NCBI RefSeq assembly: GCF_011745625.1
Contig: NW_027191478.1
Span: forward strand, 310,001-356,271
Origin: Cladosporium halotolerans
Taxonomy: Eukaryota
Reading direction: 5' to 3'
DNA length: 46,271 nt
Below the pieces are notes generated by a model, which saw nothing but the letters and a program-made list of their open reading frames with translations, was not told the origin of the DNA and ran no database searches. The position numbers were made by a program, and so were the translations under genes. Shown here piece after piece: positions 15,901-26,093 of this stretch; the first letter of the stretch is position 1, and each line of letters starts with the position of its first letter.

Positions 15901-17946
15901 ATGGAGTACGAAAAAGGCTACGTATTTCAACCGAAGGACACACGACCAGCAAAGAAACGCAAGACAGAAAGTCAAGGTCTCCATGCCTCCTGGCAGCTGC
16001 GGAAGAAAGCCTATGAGGAGGCCTGGCAAATACAGAATTCTCGCATAGAGGCAAGAATATATGAGCCCGCTTCCTGCGAAATACTAGAAACTGACAATGA
16101 CTAGGATGCTCTTGCAAGTATACATTCGAAGGCGTTGGAAGATGTCACAACATACTTGAATGAGATTGTTGAAACCCCATTACCGTCTCGCATACCGACT
16201 GGCATCGTTCTCAGTGGACCAGGCTCAGCATCTTCGAATTCACTCTCTAGTCGGGTTGCAAGTTCTGTCCAAAGCCACAAGCGGCGGCTCTATGTAACAC
16301 TCGATTCAGGGTCGGCTCCTCACTTGAAAGCTGTGTTGAAGGTCTTGATTCAGAAAGCGACAGCAAGCGTAGCCGAGGACGAAGACGACGACGAACTGGC
16401 CACCATAAGCCGCAAAGGACCTAGGCTGCTGAACTACGACCTTCAAATCCTGTACGAGTACGTGAGAGATCGAAACATCGAACAAGTCGTGGTCTCATTC
16501 CCCGACACCGAAGCACTTGGGAGCGCCTTACTTTCGGAGCTTCTCGAACTCCTCCACAGCTGGCTCGACCGCATTCCGTTTGTATGTCTCTTCAATGTTG
16601 CCACTTCTGTCGACTTCTTACAGCAACGACTTTCTCGTGGTGCTGTGCGCTGCTTGAATGGACGACTGTTTGACGCAGCACCATCCTCTGCCGAGGCCCA
16701 GCTTGTCTTCTCTGCCATTGCTCACCCTGACGCTCGCCTTTGGGTCGGTCCCACTTTGCTTGCTTCTGCGCTTGAGCGTCAAAGCGACTACATACAGAGC
16801 ATTGACGAATTAGTCGACATAGTGCAGTACGCTTACATGTCTTGTTACTACGCCAACGCTTTGAGCATCTTCCTGGATCCTTCCGTTAAGAGTGACAGCA
16901 TCCCCGCCGATCATTTTGAGGCACTGCGAAATTTGGACTCGTCCAAGGCTTTTGTGGAGTCCATGATTGAGAATGGGAACACTACAAGAGCGCGCGATTT
17001 GCTCGAATCTAATGACAACCTGCTAGCTGAAGTTCAGGAGCAGATGGCTCACGGGAAAGCCTCCTTGACCAAGATGACAACAGCCCTGGACGTTGTGCGA
17101 ACGATCCAAGACACGTTGCCAAACACCCCGACGTCCCTCAAATCGAATTTGTTCATTCAGGCCATGACATGCAAACTGCGCGGATCTGCAATGATGCGAA
17201 CCATGCTGCTGTCAGTCCGCAAAGCTCAATCGGATGTGGCGGCCGCTCTGATGGGGTCTGTCTGCGCTGCAGATATCGCAGACGACATCAAAGAAGATAT
17301 CACTTCCCTCAAAGGCCAATTGGCAGAGCTAGTGGCTGGTAGCACGGCGAAGAGCCAACCCTTGCGGAGTGAGGACGATATCGGAAGCTCAACAGTGCGA
17401 ACGACGGTGGTCGCGCAGAAAGTCCATCTGAGTAAACAAAAATCTCAGCTTTCGAAGCAAGACGCTGCGTATACGGAGATCCTTCGCAAGTTCAGCGACC
17501 ACCTCGAGGCCTATTTTGACAGCAGCTTCATCGACCCGCAAAGCCTCCCCTTTCACGAGATATTCATTTACGACCACAAATCTCCTCATAGGGAAGTCTT
17601 CACCCCGCGTCCGCGTCACGCTGTCGAACGCGCTTTGACCTCGCCGCACGACTACTTGGACTGCGATTGCTGTGCTCCCGAAAAGGGAGAGGATGGTGAG
17701 GCTACATTGTCATCTACGCAGCCGGCAGCCGCTGTCCTGTACCAGCTCTACTTGGAATCCGGCAATCTCATCAACGTCAGCGACCTCTGGCAGGCCTTCC
17801 AGGCGGTCATGGGCGGCGAGAAAGAAGAAGGAGATCTCATGGTGCTCTTCCAGCGAGCGCTCGCTGAGCTGCGGTACCTCGGGATGGTCAAGAGCACGAG
17901 AAAGAGGGCCGATCATGTTGCGAAGGTCGCGTGGAGAGGATTGTAG
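15901..17946 (+). CDS. ORC3: Origin recognition complex subunit 3 (exons 15901-16050, 16105-17946; GC-AG intron)
   Basis: PRLLNYDLQIL, RIPFVCLFNVATSVD, YAYMSCYYAN, FTPRPRHAVERAL..PHDYLDCDCC, LYLESGNLINVSDLW and FQRALAELRYLG are ORC3-like segments. Exon 1 joins in frame via GCAAGA...CTGAC...TAG. Confidence 0.92.
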
Positions 17947-18009: not shown

Positions 18010-18731
18010 TTAATGGCAGGCGGCGCTCTTAGTGGCACTCGAGCCACCGAACATAAGATATCCAAGGAAAGCGCCCACGCCAACAGCCAGCATAACCCAA
18101 CCATTATAGGTCATAAACAAAAGCCTGCACTCTCATCAGTATGGCCAAATGGGATGTTCTGAGCAGGATGACTTACATAATGAAAAATGAGTAGAAAACT
18201 TGAATGCCATAGAGCGCAGCTTTGACCGTCTTTCCCTTCTTCTCCTCCGCCGCGGCGGAGTTGCCTGTCGCGAGGAGTGAGTTACGTTCGACGTCGGCTT
18301 CGACGGAACCAAAAAAGGTAAGTTTCAAGGCATTGTAAAAACACCAAACCATATCCCTTCCTCAGAACTCTCACTGTGGGGTGGCTTTGGGGGGAACTTA
18401 CGAGTTGCGTTCTTGGTCTTTTCGGCTATGCGTTCTTCGTAGCGTCGCGACAGGTCGCGGATCGCTTCGTAGCCCGCTGTCAGCGCGATGACGGCAATCA
18501 GCGACCAGATCAGCGAGAAGGTCCCGGTCACGCGCCAGCTGGGGAAGACGATGCAGAGGTTTGTCGTATCCCAAGTGAACAGCATCTACAAATATATTAA
18601 ATCAGGCTTGTTTGGTCTCAAGGAGAAAGGAGAAGTTGCCGTACGTTCATGGAGCACATGGGCTGATCGTGGCCCATATCGCCGTGATCCATGTGGCTGT
18701 GGTCCATGCCAGCATGATGCGCGTGATCCAT
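18010..18731 (-). CDS. CTR2: Ctr copper transporter, Ctr2 (vacuolar) type (exons 18731-18645, 18585-18402, 18297 or 18264-18177, 18124-18010)
   Basis: His/Met-rich N-terminus MDHAHHAGMDHSHMDHGDM, CSMN|MLFTW, MLLFM (MxxxM), TYNGW, GxxxG, and a C-terminal ACH. Only partly visible in the ORF track. Confidence 0.92.
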
Positions 18732-20001
18732 GATGCTTGCTTGCTATCGTCGAAGCTTTGAAGCTGAATAAATATAAATGTGGTTTTTGTCTTTTGTTGA
18801 TAAGGAGTTCGCACGCGGTGATCATAAGAGCTGATGATGCCACCTCAACGCGCCAAGGATTCGGGCTGCGGGATATTTCCGGCTGTCTCATGAGGTATAT
18901 AGAGATCCCTCTATACTTGAGGTGGTACCTTCATCTCAGTAAGCGAATCCGGCCTGTGGCTTCTCACGTTCCTCTCGACTTCATACGCCTTATCTTCGAC
19001 GCCGTACTACGCTGTCGCCTGAGACTCGTGGGCCTCGAGATGTCGGTGTAGCACGAGGTTTACCGAGAACAGATGATCGGCGTCTCAGACACAAGTAGCC
19101 AGGGCTACCAGTCTGGAGAGCGACTGTGCTCATAATTCCCTGTGCAGCGACTTTTCTGCACAGCAATGAGCTTCTCTTTGCCGAGAACGATGCCTTCACA
19201 TGGCTTGAATACTCCAAGATGATTGGGTAGGCAGATGTCCTTAAAGCTCCTTCTGACCTCTACAAAAACGGCTGTGAAACCCGCAGAAGAGGCTCTCTTA
19301 TATGATAGTGTGGGATCGGTCCTAGTAGGGACCATTCATGGAGCCATATGCCAAGCATCTCGAGAGCAGAATGTCCACCAGGCTTTCCTCCACCAGTGGA
19401 AGTTCGAACTTCGAAGTGGACACCAGCTCGGAGACAATCGGCTAACTCGATGCACAAAATAACAGTGTACGATCATTCCTTGATACTCCTCAGTCAGCCC
19501 TCGCCTGCCTTGTTGGACATCTAGGATTGCGGACCATGCCCCGCAACAAGCCAAGGACTGGTTGCTGCACTCCACATTTATTTATCCGTCCAGTTATCCT
19601 TCATGTGCACTTCAAACCTCATAGCAAACCATGGACTTGCTGCTATACATCTTCAAAGCCAAGAATGGATACCTCTCCCCACTGTTGACGGTGTCCTCTT
19701 AGCTTCGGCGCCTCGCTTTGATCTTCGCCGACCTTCCGATATAGTTCACTTACCCGACTGCTTTTCCGGCCATGCTTGCATTGACTGTCCACATATCCAG
19801 AGCCAAAAGGACAAGCATAGCGAAGATCGAGTGGAGAAAGACTTGGCCAATTGATTATATATTGTGACGCTTCACCGGGATGGATCGCGGTCGTTTATCG
19901 AAGTGCCGGAATCGCAATCAACTACTCTGGTAAGGAACCCATCAATCAGCAGAAGAAAATTATTTGATCTTCTTGCGATCTTGTTGCTCGCTTCGAACAA
20001 C

Positions 20002-22155: not shown

Positions 22156-25100
22156 TCACCTCCCCTCCACCTCCCCCCCTACCCAACTCCTCCAATACCC
22201 CCCCAGCAACCTCAGCACCTGCCTCTGGCCCATCGCGTCCTCGCACGCCAGCTGCAAGACGCCGCCCTCGAAGACCTCGCCCTCGCTCTCCGCGCCTGCG
22301 CCCGCCTTTCCCTTGCCAGCAAACTCGAGGCAGATGCTGTGCGCGAGCTCCTGGCGGTCGAGGTCGGGCGCGCAGGGCGCCTTGAACTCCGAGAGGTGGA
22401 ACTTCTTGCCCGGGCGCTGCTGGGCGGCGTGCGGGGTGGTTTGCTGCGAGGTGGGCGGGGAGAGGTGCAGGTGGCCGGTTTCGTCGAGGGAGAGCCAGCG
22501 GCGTTTCCAGAGCTGGGAGGATGGGTTAGCCTTTTCTTTTTCGGGTGGAGGGGTTTGCTGGGGGGTTGCTTGAAGAGGACTTACGAGAGTGTCGGGGAAT
22601 TGGACGTTGAGGTCGCCGACTTGGACTGCGGGGGGAGTGTCGCGGTCGAGGTTTGCGGGCGCGGGCGCGGGCGCGGTGGGCGGTGAGGTTGCGGCGACGC
22701 TGCCGGCGCGCGAGGCGCTGGTTTCGGTGGGGTTTGCGCTGGCGACGGAGACGGTGCTTGCGCCGATGAGCGAGCGTCGCTTCGAGGAGCCGCCGCCGAA
22801 GTTGCTCATGCGTTTGAAGAAGCGGCTGGTGCGGCTTCCGCCGTGCTCTTCGGTCGAGGCGATCGATGCAGAGCCGGGCTGGAGGTCGTTGGCGGGGGTG
22901 GGGCCTGGGTTGGAGGCCCTGGTGCGGCCGAGGGATTTGCGGCGAAGGGAGTGTAGAGAGCGGTGATCGGGCGACGTTGGCTCGACAGGTGGAGATGGCA
23001 TTGGTGGAAGGAAAGCTTGGGAGACGGCGGTCGGTGTTGGGACGCCACGGAGGTGGTTGATCTCGATTTGGGATTCGTGGAGGTCAGCGGTCTTTTCGCC
23101 AGAACGCTCGGTGCTGCCAGCCGTGTTAGGGCGGACAATGCGAGCTTTGACGGAAACGGAATCGCGGTTGCTGGTGTTGTCGTGAGTCGTGTTCCAGACG
23201 GGAGGTGACTCGAGCTGCTGGACAGCAGGGCTGCTGGAGCCGGTACGTTCAGCGTGAGGTCGCATTCTGAATGCCGAACCAGAGCGCGAATGGGGAGATC
23301 GCAGGGTCGGCTTGCGGTCGTTCGAAAGGAGCATCGAAGCTTGATCTGGGGACATCGCCCGGGTAGGGATGTGCACCGGAACGGTGTTTGTTTCTCTGCT
23401 AGACATTTCGTTGAGAGCCTGGATGCGGCGAGTGATGCCAGAGCTCACGTTCCTCTTCAGCGATGGGCTGGGAGTGTTACGGTCGATTGGAGAGATGCTG
23501 TGAGAGGACAGCCCAGATAGCGGCTGTTGTGCTGGCTCTGGAGAAACCGAGATGTCTCGTTCGGCACGTTGCTGTAGCTGCTGATCAGGTGAGACATCCT
23601 GTGCAGGCTGAGACACGCCGTTGGTGATGCTAATCGCTCTCACCGGGCTCCGCGAATTCGAAGCTGCGGAGTCACGGGATGGAGACCTTCCAAGATTCGG
23701 CGGAAAGAAAGGCGTGTTGGGTCCCGGAGACTTGGAAACGGACATTTCCCTGGCATCGTGGAATGTCGCGGTTTGCAGCTCTTCGAACAATTCGTTGTCG
23801 GACAGGCTGTCAGCAACACTGTTCCGGCGAGTGTCGACGTCAATGTGCAAAGGCTCGACGAGTCCGCGACGACGCTTCGCAAGGTCGCTCATCTGCTTCA
23901 TTGTTTCCTCCGAAGGTGTCGGAAGTGTACCACTGCTCTCCATGCTGCTCGGATCTCTGCTTTCTGACGCGAAATCTTCTCTTTGCGTGGCCGCTTCGGC
24001 AGTCTGTGGTCGCGAAGACGCAGTGGTGACGATAGCTGGCACATCCGTAATGAGGTTTTCGACAGAAGTGGAGAAAGCGGTTTCATCGACGTTCTGGTTG
24101 ACCGCTTTGGTTTGTGCATTGAGAGTGGTGGCATTGGCCTGTTCAGCAGATGCCTGGGTTTGTTGATGTTCCTCGTCAGGGATCGTCGCGGTCTTAGGCA
24201 GCATGTCGTGCTCGAGAGTCTTGGGGCTGGGAGTGGCTGAGTCAACTGCGCCAGCTCGCTGCTGAACCTCTGTCGCGGCGTCTTGAGACTTCTCCTCGAC
24301 CTCGATCTGTGGTGCGCTTGAAGTTTCCTGCGGTGCAACATCTTGCACGCCAGATGGCGATGCCAATAATCCTGGCGGTTGTGCCAAAGCTTCTTCTTGA
24401 GGTTCACCGCTTGGTGTCAGGGTCGCTGGGTCCTCGCTTCCGACTTCTGGTCCATTGTCGTTTTCGACGTTGGAGTTGGAGGTCACTTCACGGGATGCAG
24501 CCAATTCACTGCCCGGTTGAATGTGTTGCGCGATAGGCTGCGAAGGCGGTTCCTGCGTAGAAACAGGCACCTGCGGCACCTCTGGCGCATCGTCCACAAC
24601 CATAGGAGTCTTGACTTGAGGGTTTGACTTTCGCATTTGCTTCTTCCGCAGCTCGACGGCCTTCATCAGTCGCAGTTTTTCCGGTGTCATGGTCGTGCTC
24701 TTTTGAGAGGGCATGCTCTTCACACTTCCTCTTGAGATGGGCCTGGGATTGTATTCTGGAACATCGGGGATCGGTGGCGGGGCGGGGAAATTCAACTGGT
24801 TCGGCTGGAGGAATCCTCCTGGAGTAGTTGATGATGGCCTCTGCTGCTCTTGCTTCTTGGAAGATCGGTAAGCAGCAGGCAGTAAACTAGTTCCCAAATT
24901 TCCGCCGGACTTCCGGTGTTTCTCAGTGGCGGCGACCGGGCGTGGTCCTAGTTTGACCTTGGGCTTCGCCTCGAGATAGCTGAAATCGAAGGGTTCGTCG
25001 AGATCGGGCTTCGGGCGTTCAGGCACGGTGACTTGCTCAGTCAGCTCTGGCATAGCTTGCGATCCAGCGTCGGAGTAGACAGTTGAGATTGGTCGTTCAG

Positions 25101-26093
25101 TGGCCTCGCTAGGTCTTTCAGGCGAAGGTTCGCGAATGCTAGGCGCTTGAACTGGGGCGTGAGAAATTTCGTCGTTCGTAATGTCATCTTTGAGCTCAGC
25201 CGTCTGGTCTTCCGGATGCTGCAGCTCGACAGTGCTTGGGATGGTTTCCGTCTCCTTGACCGTCGAAGCATCTGATTCCACTGTCGACGGTGCATACTCC
25301 GAAAGCGAGGATGTAGAAGGTGTGAGAGGAGTGATAGATCGGGTGCCAGAGTCTTCGCGAACGAGGAATTGTGATATTGAGGGCTTCGTGCCAGTGGGCG
25401 GTGAAGCGGGAAGTGAATGAAAAGACCGCGCTGATCCGGCTGGGCTGACAGGACGTGCCTGCTCGGACCGCATGAGCTGGTCCACCCTTCTTTCAGCCTT
25501 GTACCGGCTGGTACCAAATTTGGCGCTTGTACTGCTCTTGGTCCTCATTGGCGCCCTCGGTATGAGCGCACCGTTGCCGCCGTCTTCTGCATCCTCGCTG
25601 ATTTCGTCCAAGCGAGTGGTGGAGACTGCGGGAGAGGCAGTGTGTAGTGGGAAGGAGGATGCCAGAGATGTGTCGCTAAGCTCGTCCGGGTGGGAGATTT
25701 CGAGGATGGTCTCATACGGCGCATATCGCTCGGCGACAGCTTGGAAGTGAACGGCAGTCCTGGCTGTGGGAGTGGTCAGCTTTCATCCGGCCTCAATTCG
25801 CGGCCTCATTGCGCATGGCGCAAGAACGTACCCTGCAGCAGGCGCGAAGTGCCCTCCGGAATGTATTTGATGAGGATTTTGCGGCGACGGTAGATGATCA
25901 AGCCGTAGAGCGGCGACTTGTCTTCGTACTTGATCAGCTCGTTGCGCGCCTCGTGCACGCCGCCCTTGCCTCGCGCGAGCAGCTCGACGGAGTCCCTGGA
26001 GGTGTACTTCAGCAAGAACCAGCCACCGACCTCGACAATGGCGGCATTGTGGGCGTCGGTGACTTCTTGGGCATCGAGGCCATTCAGCGACAT
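22156..26093 (-). CDS. Large protein with N-terminal ADF-H (cofilin/Abp1-like) domain, long Ser/Pro-rich disordered region and C-terminal PH-like domain (exons 26093-25832, 25763-22585, 22512-22156)
   Basis: Exon 1 GWFLLKY...LLARGKGG...PLYG..YRRRKILIKYIPEGTSRLLQ|ARTAVHF is ADF-H-like. C-terminal GDLNVQFPDTL|LWKRRWLSLD...LQLACED is PH-like. Canonical introns with CTGAC/CTAAC branch points. Confidence 0.82.

Follow-up and report, generated by a model that had tools for sequence, protein, structure and literature searches.

A conserved pair of 3' splice sites that may keep or drop a dileucine-type sorting signal in a Ctr2-type copper transporter of Cladosporium halotolerans

Intron 2 of a Ctr2-type copper transporter gene from Cladosporium halotolerans carries two in-frame 3' splice sites, and the conserved choice between them appears, on balance, to keep or drop a loop signal that is likely read by adaptors, the long form then reaching the vacuole via AP-3 and the short form travelling by another route. 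The parts of this reading are not equally firm: that two products are made in C. halotolerans can be held with high confidence, a sorting role for the 33-nt segment that separates the acceptors is probable, and a location of the short form at the cell surface is rather doubtful.

The gene was found in a window of 46,271 nt, the whole stretch of DNA that was analysed, where it occupies 18731-18010 on the minus strand in four exons. Exon 1 (18645..18731) carries the ATG and a His/Met-rich N-terminus ending in CSMN, and is followed by a 59-nt intron 1 that is skipped in all four of the runs discussed below; exon 2 (18402..18585) encodes TM1 and the start of the TM1-TM2 loop; the constitutive part of exon 3 (18177..18264) encodes the loop end and TM2; and exon 4 (18010..18124) contributes the rest of MxxxM, TM3 with GxxxG, the C-terminal CH and the stop. 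The product matches Pfam family PF04145 (Ctr) with 113 bits against a curated cut-off of 25.3 (E 2.3e-32), has the MxxxM-x12-GxxxG signature from residue 131, and combines three hydrophobic stretches with a match to the solved Ctr1 structure 6m97. It also shows the N-terminal Met/His and C-terminal Cys/His features of the family, with MCSM at residue 25 and CH at residue 167. Five Ctr genes, the Ctr2-type gene included, were found in the C. halotolerans genome, and the database model of this product (P0001) is the best genome match both of S. cerevisiae Ctr2 (L043; 95 bits, versus 31 for the next Ctr) and of N. crassa TCU-2 (164 versus 51 bits), these being pairwise scores without a tree, with each paralogue represented by its main open frame only. 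Judged by its sequence, the gene is a Ctr2-type copper transporter.

Intron 2 begins at the donor GTAAGT (18396..18401, minus strand, phase 1). The weak upstream acceptor AAG (18298..18300, minus strand) closes a 104-nt intron and yields a long form of 168 aa that reads NAT-PDVERNSLLATG-NSAAA, and the downstream acceptor CAG (18265..18267, minus strand) closes a 137-nt intron and yields a short form of 157 aa that reads NAT-R-NSAAA. The sequence-only reading had proposed two in-frame acceptors 33 nt apart, and its coordinates and both of its translations proved correct: both introns are in phase 1, both gene models are open, and each form retains the complete set of Ctr features. The alternative segment of 33 nt (18265..18297, minus strand) encodes DVERNSLLATG in the long form and is the 3' end of the intron in the short form; the database model P0001 (168 aa, labelled Cladosporium halotolerans) takes the upstream acceptor. 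Ahead of that acceptor lie a branch-like ACTTAC (18323-18318), which may act as branch site, and a T-run (18316-18311), together spanning 18311..18323 on the minus strand; CTTAC is also present in the Cladosporium-like locus L016. The words GTAAC (18285-18281) and CTCAC (18281-18277) precede the downstream acceptor. An in-frame GAG at 18362-18360 was considered as a further acceptor and set aside, as its 41-nt intron would be too short and had no support.

The alternative segment includes the codons for ERNSLL (18272..18289, minus strand), a putative acidic dileucine sorting motif at residues 94-99 whose Ser codon carries the branch-like CTCAC. ERNSLL is the sole [DE]xxxL[LI] in the protein and, as had been noted, it fits [DE]xxxLL and sits in the TM1-TM2 loop of the Ctr product, a loop taken to be cytosolic as in the Ctr family. 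An AlphaFold model of the long form (mean pLDDT 54, pTM 0.27) is too weak to judge whether the motif is exposed; in this weak model the ERNSLL region is drawn as a helix with pLDDT of about 50.

Acceptor use was read from transcript-derived contigs of 4 of the 23 listed runs, belonging to three studies and picked as likely RNA; one of them (X8) is on record as RNA, and the other three are presumed to be RNA, with all three introns absent. The downstream junction, which skips 137 nt, was present in the assembled contigs of all four C. halotolerans runs, and the 104-nt upstream junction in none of the four; as assembled contigs drop minor variants, the long form may nonetheless be made in C. halotolerans. 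Among relatives, a 1057-nt Logan contig from one Cladosporium contains the fully spliced long form (P0122), with AP-PDVERHSLL and the same upstream junction, and a 789-nt contig from another contains the short form (P0028). The earlier proposal that one gene produces both forms was supported by spliced transcripts of both in relatives, and lacked its upstream junction in the four contig sets of the species itself. Gene calls from environmental sequence offer a further view: such calls read straight through introns, and full-length products are therefore inferred to derive from spliced RNA. Fully spliced environmental proteins comprised 16 long and 7 short forms among 107 non-NCBI proteins (a count that omits one protein with intron 3 unspliced and in which P0203 was missed by the pattern), and a second set comprised 16 long and 5 short among 60, all of these being cluster representatives rather than abundances. 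Long and short forms with identical flanks were found twice, P0171 with P0120/P0172 and P0363 with P0359.

The same material held several other observations. Within one species or a set of close relatives, the position of the upstream acceptor seems to shift by a few codons, always with the motif kept (P0096/P0123, P0162/P0203 and P0168/P0171), and more than two forms may exist. Contigs with unspliced intron 2 were present in two of the four runs (18270-18426 and 18235-18374); the product of intron 2 retention would have 115 aa and TM1 only, and environmental matches include proteins with intron 1 removed and intron 2 kept. A special role for this retention was not accepted, as retained shorter introns may vanish in assembly. 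An estimate of the isoform ratio from contig depth was likewise rejected, since each contig carries a single depth value and the main ones extend into the neighbouring gene. All four runs have A for C at 18215 (plus strand), a silent change in an Ala codon that is probably a strain difference, and the contig of run X4 continues past 18775, upstream of the gene, into sequence absent from the window, which is possibly a chimera.

The Ctr2 gene lies between ORC3, which is convergent with it on the plus strand, and a GH88-type gene. ORC3 (16105-17946) and the end of Ctr2 at 18010 leave 63 bases between the two stop codons, and the transcript contigs of runs X2 and X4 continue from Ctr2 into ORC3 sequence, so that the 3' ends of the two genes probably overlap. 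Elsewhere in the window an open frame of 1208 codons (22156-25782, minus strand) is of low complexity and has no Pfam match.

Conservation of the acceptor pair was examined in 80 metagenome loci plus the window. Loci were left out as duplicates (7), as intronless and yeast-like (4), as uninterrupted and cDNA-like (3) or for want of an anchor (2), which leaves 65. Of these, 62 have a phase-1 CAG or TAG that precedes the TM2 anchor by 17-22 codons, with 55 of the hits at 20-21 codons; applied to four control windows, the same YAG test succeeded in 4, 8, 7 and 17 of the 65 loci, and applied to the other two phases in 5 and 10. The loci are related and the counts are hence not independent events; after thinning, the YAG was kept in 31/33 loci at less than 75% DNA identity and in 13/14 at less than 65%. 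The donor of intron 2 is in phase 1 in every locus with an exon-2 anchor (57/57; 7 of 64 have no anchor). On the upstream side, an in-frame AG precedes the acidic residue in all 52 motif-bearing loci. Presence of both acceptors in orthologous introns, which the sequence-only reading had offered as a check on itself, was therefore found: the downstream YAG in 62/65 loci, the upstream in-frame AG in 52/52 that bear the motif. These upstream AGs are mostly weak (AAG 20, GAG 10, CAG 6, TAG 1, no branch-like word 15; n=52), and an AAG signature is present in 20 of 23 close Cladosporium-like read-through proteins, the other 3 not being readable. A test for an open frame upstream of the acceptor found 60/61 loci open in frame, but also 50/61 in one other frame, and is hence weak.

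Conservation of the downstream acceptor position exceeds chance. Named gene models with either form span the Dothideomycetes, Lecanoromycetes, Leotiomycetes and Sordariomycetes, and long and short forms stand under consecutive accessions in N. crassa and Cercospora zeina; the splice event is, to go by these models and loci, common to several classes of filamentous ascomycetes. Three genomic loci (L048, L052 and L053, of 65) have no YAG in the scored window, L048 having one 23 codons up, and L012 has a spliced long form with no in-phase YAG after LL; in these four the switch may have been lost or shifted.

The peptide was read upstream of the conserved acceptor, with no motif assumed beforehand, in 62 loci. 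The expectation that orthologues would share ExxxLL was upheld in part, as the skipped bases encode ExxxL[LI] in 38/62, a degenerate ExxP/S-[FL]-x in 14/62 and neither in 10/62 (one of them cut short). In introns 1 and 3 of the gene, the 3' end shows the same motifs in 0/47 and 2/57 cases, respectively. Loci of Sordariomycete/Leotiomycete type have ExxPF[LF] or ExxPLW, and N. crassa has ETTMPWLL, none of which fits [DE]xxxL[LI]. The alternative segment may be as short as about 9 residues or longer than 30.

Across the 38 canonical motifs, the codon for the first Leu varies (CTC 10, TTA 10, TTG 9, CTG 5 and CTA 4), Pro precedes LL in 4, and the codon before the first Leu is Ser TCA in 33, TCA accounting for 4/59 Ser codons in the constitutive part. 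With the preceding C, this TCA makes CTCAY, which as a rule precedes the acceptor by 13 nt, and in the window the branch A is predicted at 18278; the other introns of the gene mostly use CTRAY. Since CTRAY in the register of the Ser codon would be an in-frame stop, the branch site appears to be kept as the Ser codon before LL. The codon that follows CTCAT is TTA or TTG for Leu in 18/23 cases and Phe once, which argues that the leucines are not a disguised pyrimidine tract. Loci of the ExxPF type carry instead the fixed word CTGAG, which falls in Thr/Ala-Glu codons and 23-29 nt ahead of the acceptor (12/14). The CTCAY and CTGAG words are putative branch points, and the branch-like words pointed out earlier fared unevenly: CTCAC/CTCAT, in the Ser codon, is conserved, and GTAAC is not a conserved word. 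In the ExxPF-type clade (L055, L064, L067, L079 and similar loci) the word is RCTGAG, as if the branch site had shifted without loss of acceptor or motif. The pattern of codons and words shows that the 33-nt segment is under selection both as a splice signal and as a peptide. It is a clear case of dual coding, with a branch-like sequence and a putative sorting motif sharing bases. The Glu codon of the motif (18289-18287 in the window) is GAA in 36/38 loci, the constitutive Glu codons being GAA 9 and GAG 47; this bias suggests a further constraint at the DNA level, such as avoidance of AG or a splicing enhancer.

AP adaptors, AP-1 and AP-2 as well as AP-3, recognise motifs of the form [DE]xxxL[LI] in cytosolic loops. 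In yeast, a six-residue EQSPLL suffices to divert proteins of the plasma membrane into the AP-3 route to the vacuole, according to the accessible part of PMC6314561, and an LL>AA mutant of Ypq1 still reaches the vacuole membrane, via the CPY route and not via the surface (PMC4649669, likewise seen in part). In the genome of C. halotolerans an AP-3 sigma was identified (L091; E 1e-30, versus 2e-17 for AP-1 sigma), the sole AP-3 subunit so identified; a search of the same genome with the AP-3 beta C-terminal family PF14796 gave no match, and as the controls gave none either the result is uninformative. By analogy with the yeast cargoes, the long form is likely routed by AP-3. The weak upstream acceptor, mostly AAG or GAG, would compete with a consensus YAG that is served by the non-consensus CTCAY. 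Choice of the upstream acceptor would keep the loop segment, and AP-3 would carry the long form straight to the vacuole membrane; choice of the downstream acceptor would remove the signal and leave the short form, like the motif-less yeast Ctr2, on a default or endosomal route that may end at the endosome, the vacuole or the cell surface.

Three other readings have to be weighed against this one. The motif could simply reflect the sequence demands of branch point and pyrimidine tract, with function confined to the downstream acceptor and upstream use as noise or as an error of gene prediction; the downstream junction alone was seen in the C. halotolerans contigs, upstream acceptors are mostly non-consensus and many long models are ab initio. 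Against it stand the 32 fully spliced long-form environmental proteins, the variety of synonymous Leu codons, some of them ending in a purine, the near absence of the motif at the gene's other intron ends and the two variants reported experimentally in each of two species (accessible part of PMC6531763), and this reading is already largely refuted; we regard it as very improbable. A rather improbable alternative has both forms at the vacuole membrane, with the segment tuning turnover, endocytic retrieval by AP-2 or AP-1, gating or the behaviour of mixed trimers. It would accommodate the report that both variants function in yeast (PMC6531763, in the part available), the drift of the motif to ExxPF[LF]/ExxPLW in one large clade and its lack in 10/62 loci, and a yeast Ctr2 that needs no such motif; what speaks against it is that the spacing of an acidic residue, three residues and two bulky hydrophobics is kept while the length of the segment varies, which is typical of a linear sorting motif and not of a structural element.

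The strongest version of a switch would make the long form a vacuolar copper exporter and the short form a plasma-membrane importer, with copper status switching the acceptor. A dileucine motif is sufficient for rerouting in yeast (PMC6314561, accessible part), S. cerevisiae Ctr2 is described as perhaps importing copper with low affinity when it sits in the plasma membrane (PMC11509074, accessible part), and both forms were assembled as transcripts in different samples. S. cerevisiae Ctr2 is, however, described as vacuolar in the available portions of PMC7705104 and PMC6981102 and lacks the motif, as do all of the intronless yeast Ctr2-type proteins compared (0/5, S. cerevisiae included); loss of a dileucine often merely diverts a protein to the CPY route (PMC4649669, in part), and the four other Ctr genes of the genome could serve uptake. 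We consider this version quite unlikely. The proposal of a splice switch that toggles a sorting signal is accordingly upheld for the acceptors, the translations and the selection on the motif, and is at odds, in its strong version, with the vacuolar location of motif-less yeast Ctr2. Switching of the acceptor by copper is by itself unlikely, and we are similarly sceptical of the combined picture of a vacuolar signal that contains the branch point of the very acceptor that removes it, and of a Ctr2 that acts as vacuolar exporter or surface importer, or in mixed trimers, depending on copper or developmental stage. Sites of the Mac1 type TTTGC(T/G)C, a pattern taken from the accessible part of PMC11509074, number 13 in the window against 15.9 expected, with none at 18731-19900, and these counts are weakly consistent with a Mac1-independent Ctr2.

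The preferred reading, a conserved acceptor choice that keeps or drops an adaptor-read signal, bears on the reason for two Ctr2 proteins from a single gene and on whether fungal Ctr2 is found at the vacuole, the surface or both; gene models that choose one form may mislead work on localisation or complementation. In fungal glycolytic enzymes, cryptic peroxisomal signals are gained or lost by alternative splicing, and there, too, one gene has a toggled targeting signal; that signal is a C-terminal import signal, whereas the one here is an internal membrane-trafficking motif. The yeast AP-3 cargoes (Ypq1 with EQQPLL, a reporter with EQSPLL) resemble ERNSLL in the acidic residue at -4 and in LL within a cytosolic loop (accessible parts of PMC4649669 and PMC6314561). 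They differ in that several have Pro at -1 where ERNSLL has Ser (PMC4649669, in part), and in that ERNSLL is encoded by an alternative part of an exon, where a branch-like sequence overlaps it. S. cerevisiae Ctr2 shares the CSMNMLF[TS]W start, FMTYNGW, a C-terminal ACH and a loop as short as that of the short form; unlike the gene described here it is intronless, makes one form and has no [DE]xxxL[LI] in the 160 aa read, SQRVLL being present.

The closest precedents are two fungal Ctr2 genes. The accessible part of PMC6531763 describes a pair of splice variants for C. gloeosporioides CTR2 (CgCTR2), a putative vacuolar Ctr2 (Barhoom 2008), and another pair for N. crassa TCU-2 (Korripally 2010); the variants retain the full CTR features and are functional in a yeast triple mutant. 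Long and short CTR2 transcripts have accordingly been known in two moulds since 2008 and 2010, with no functional difference stated in that part of the account (PMC6531763). CTR2 of C. gloeosporioides resembles the present gene in having two in-frame variants, a likeness drawn from the description and not from sequence (PMC6531763, same part). NCBI labels 'CTR2 long/short splice variant' are attached to the homologues P0325, which has the segment, and P0350, which lacks it; they presumably derive from Colletotrichum entries. TCU-2 and 'TCU-2, variant' are P0297 (200 aa) and P0290 (166 aa), under ESA44088.1 and ESA44087.1. TCU-2 is an orthologue with 47-51% identity to P0001, its forms differ at the same loop site and its short form joins ...TPR-QN...; it differs in toggling 34 residues against 11 here and in its degenerate motif ETTMPWLL. 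In the open full-text literature, which leaves most subscription papers and both primary reports outside, no paper was found to connect such variants with a dileucine signal, with AP-3 or with conservation across classes, and Ctr2 splicing is not described in the accessible parts of PMC11509074, PMC8027276, PMC3103425 and PMC5349155. With the splice pair already known from CgCTR2 and TCU-2, the C. halotolerans locus is a further member; comparison across the loci names the toggled item, an acidic dileucine-type motif, and what may be new is the reading of this known pair as the gain and loss of a sorting signal.
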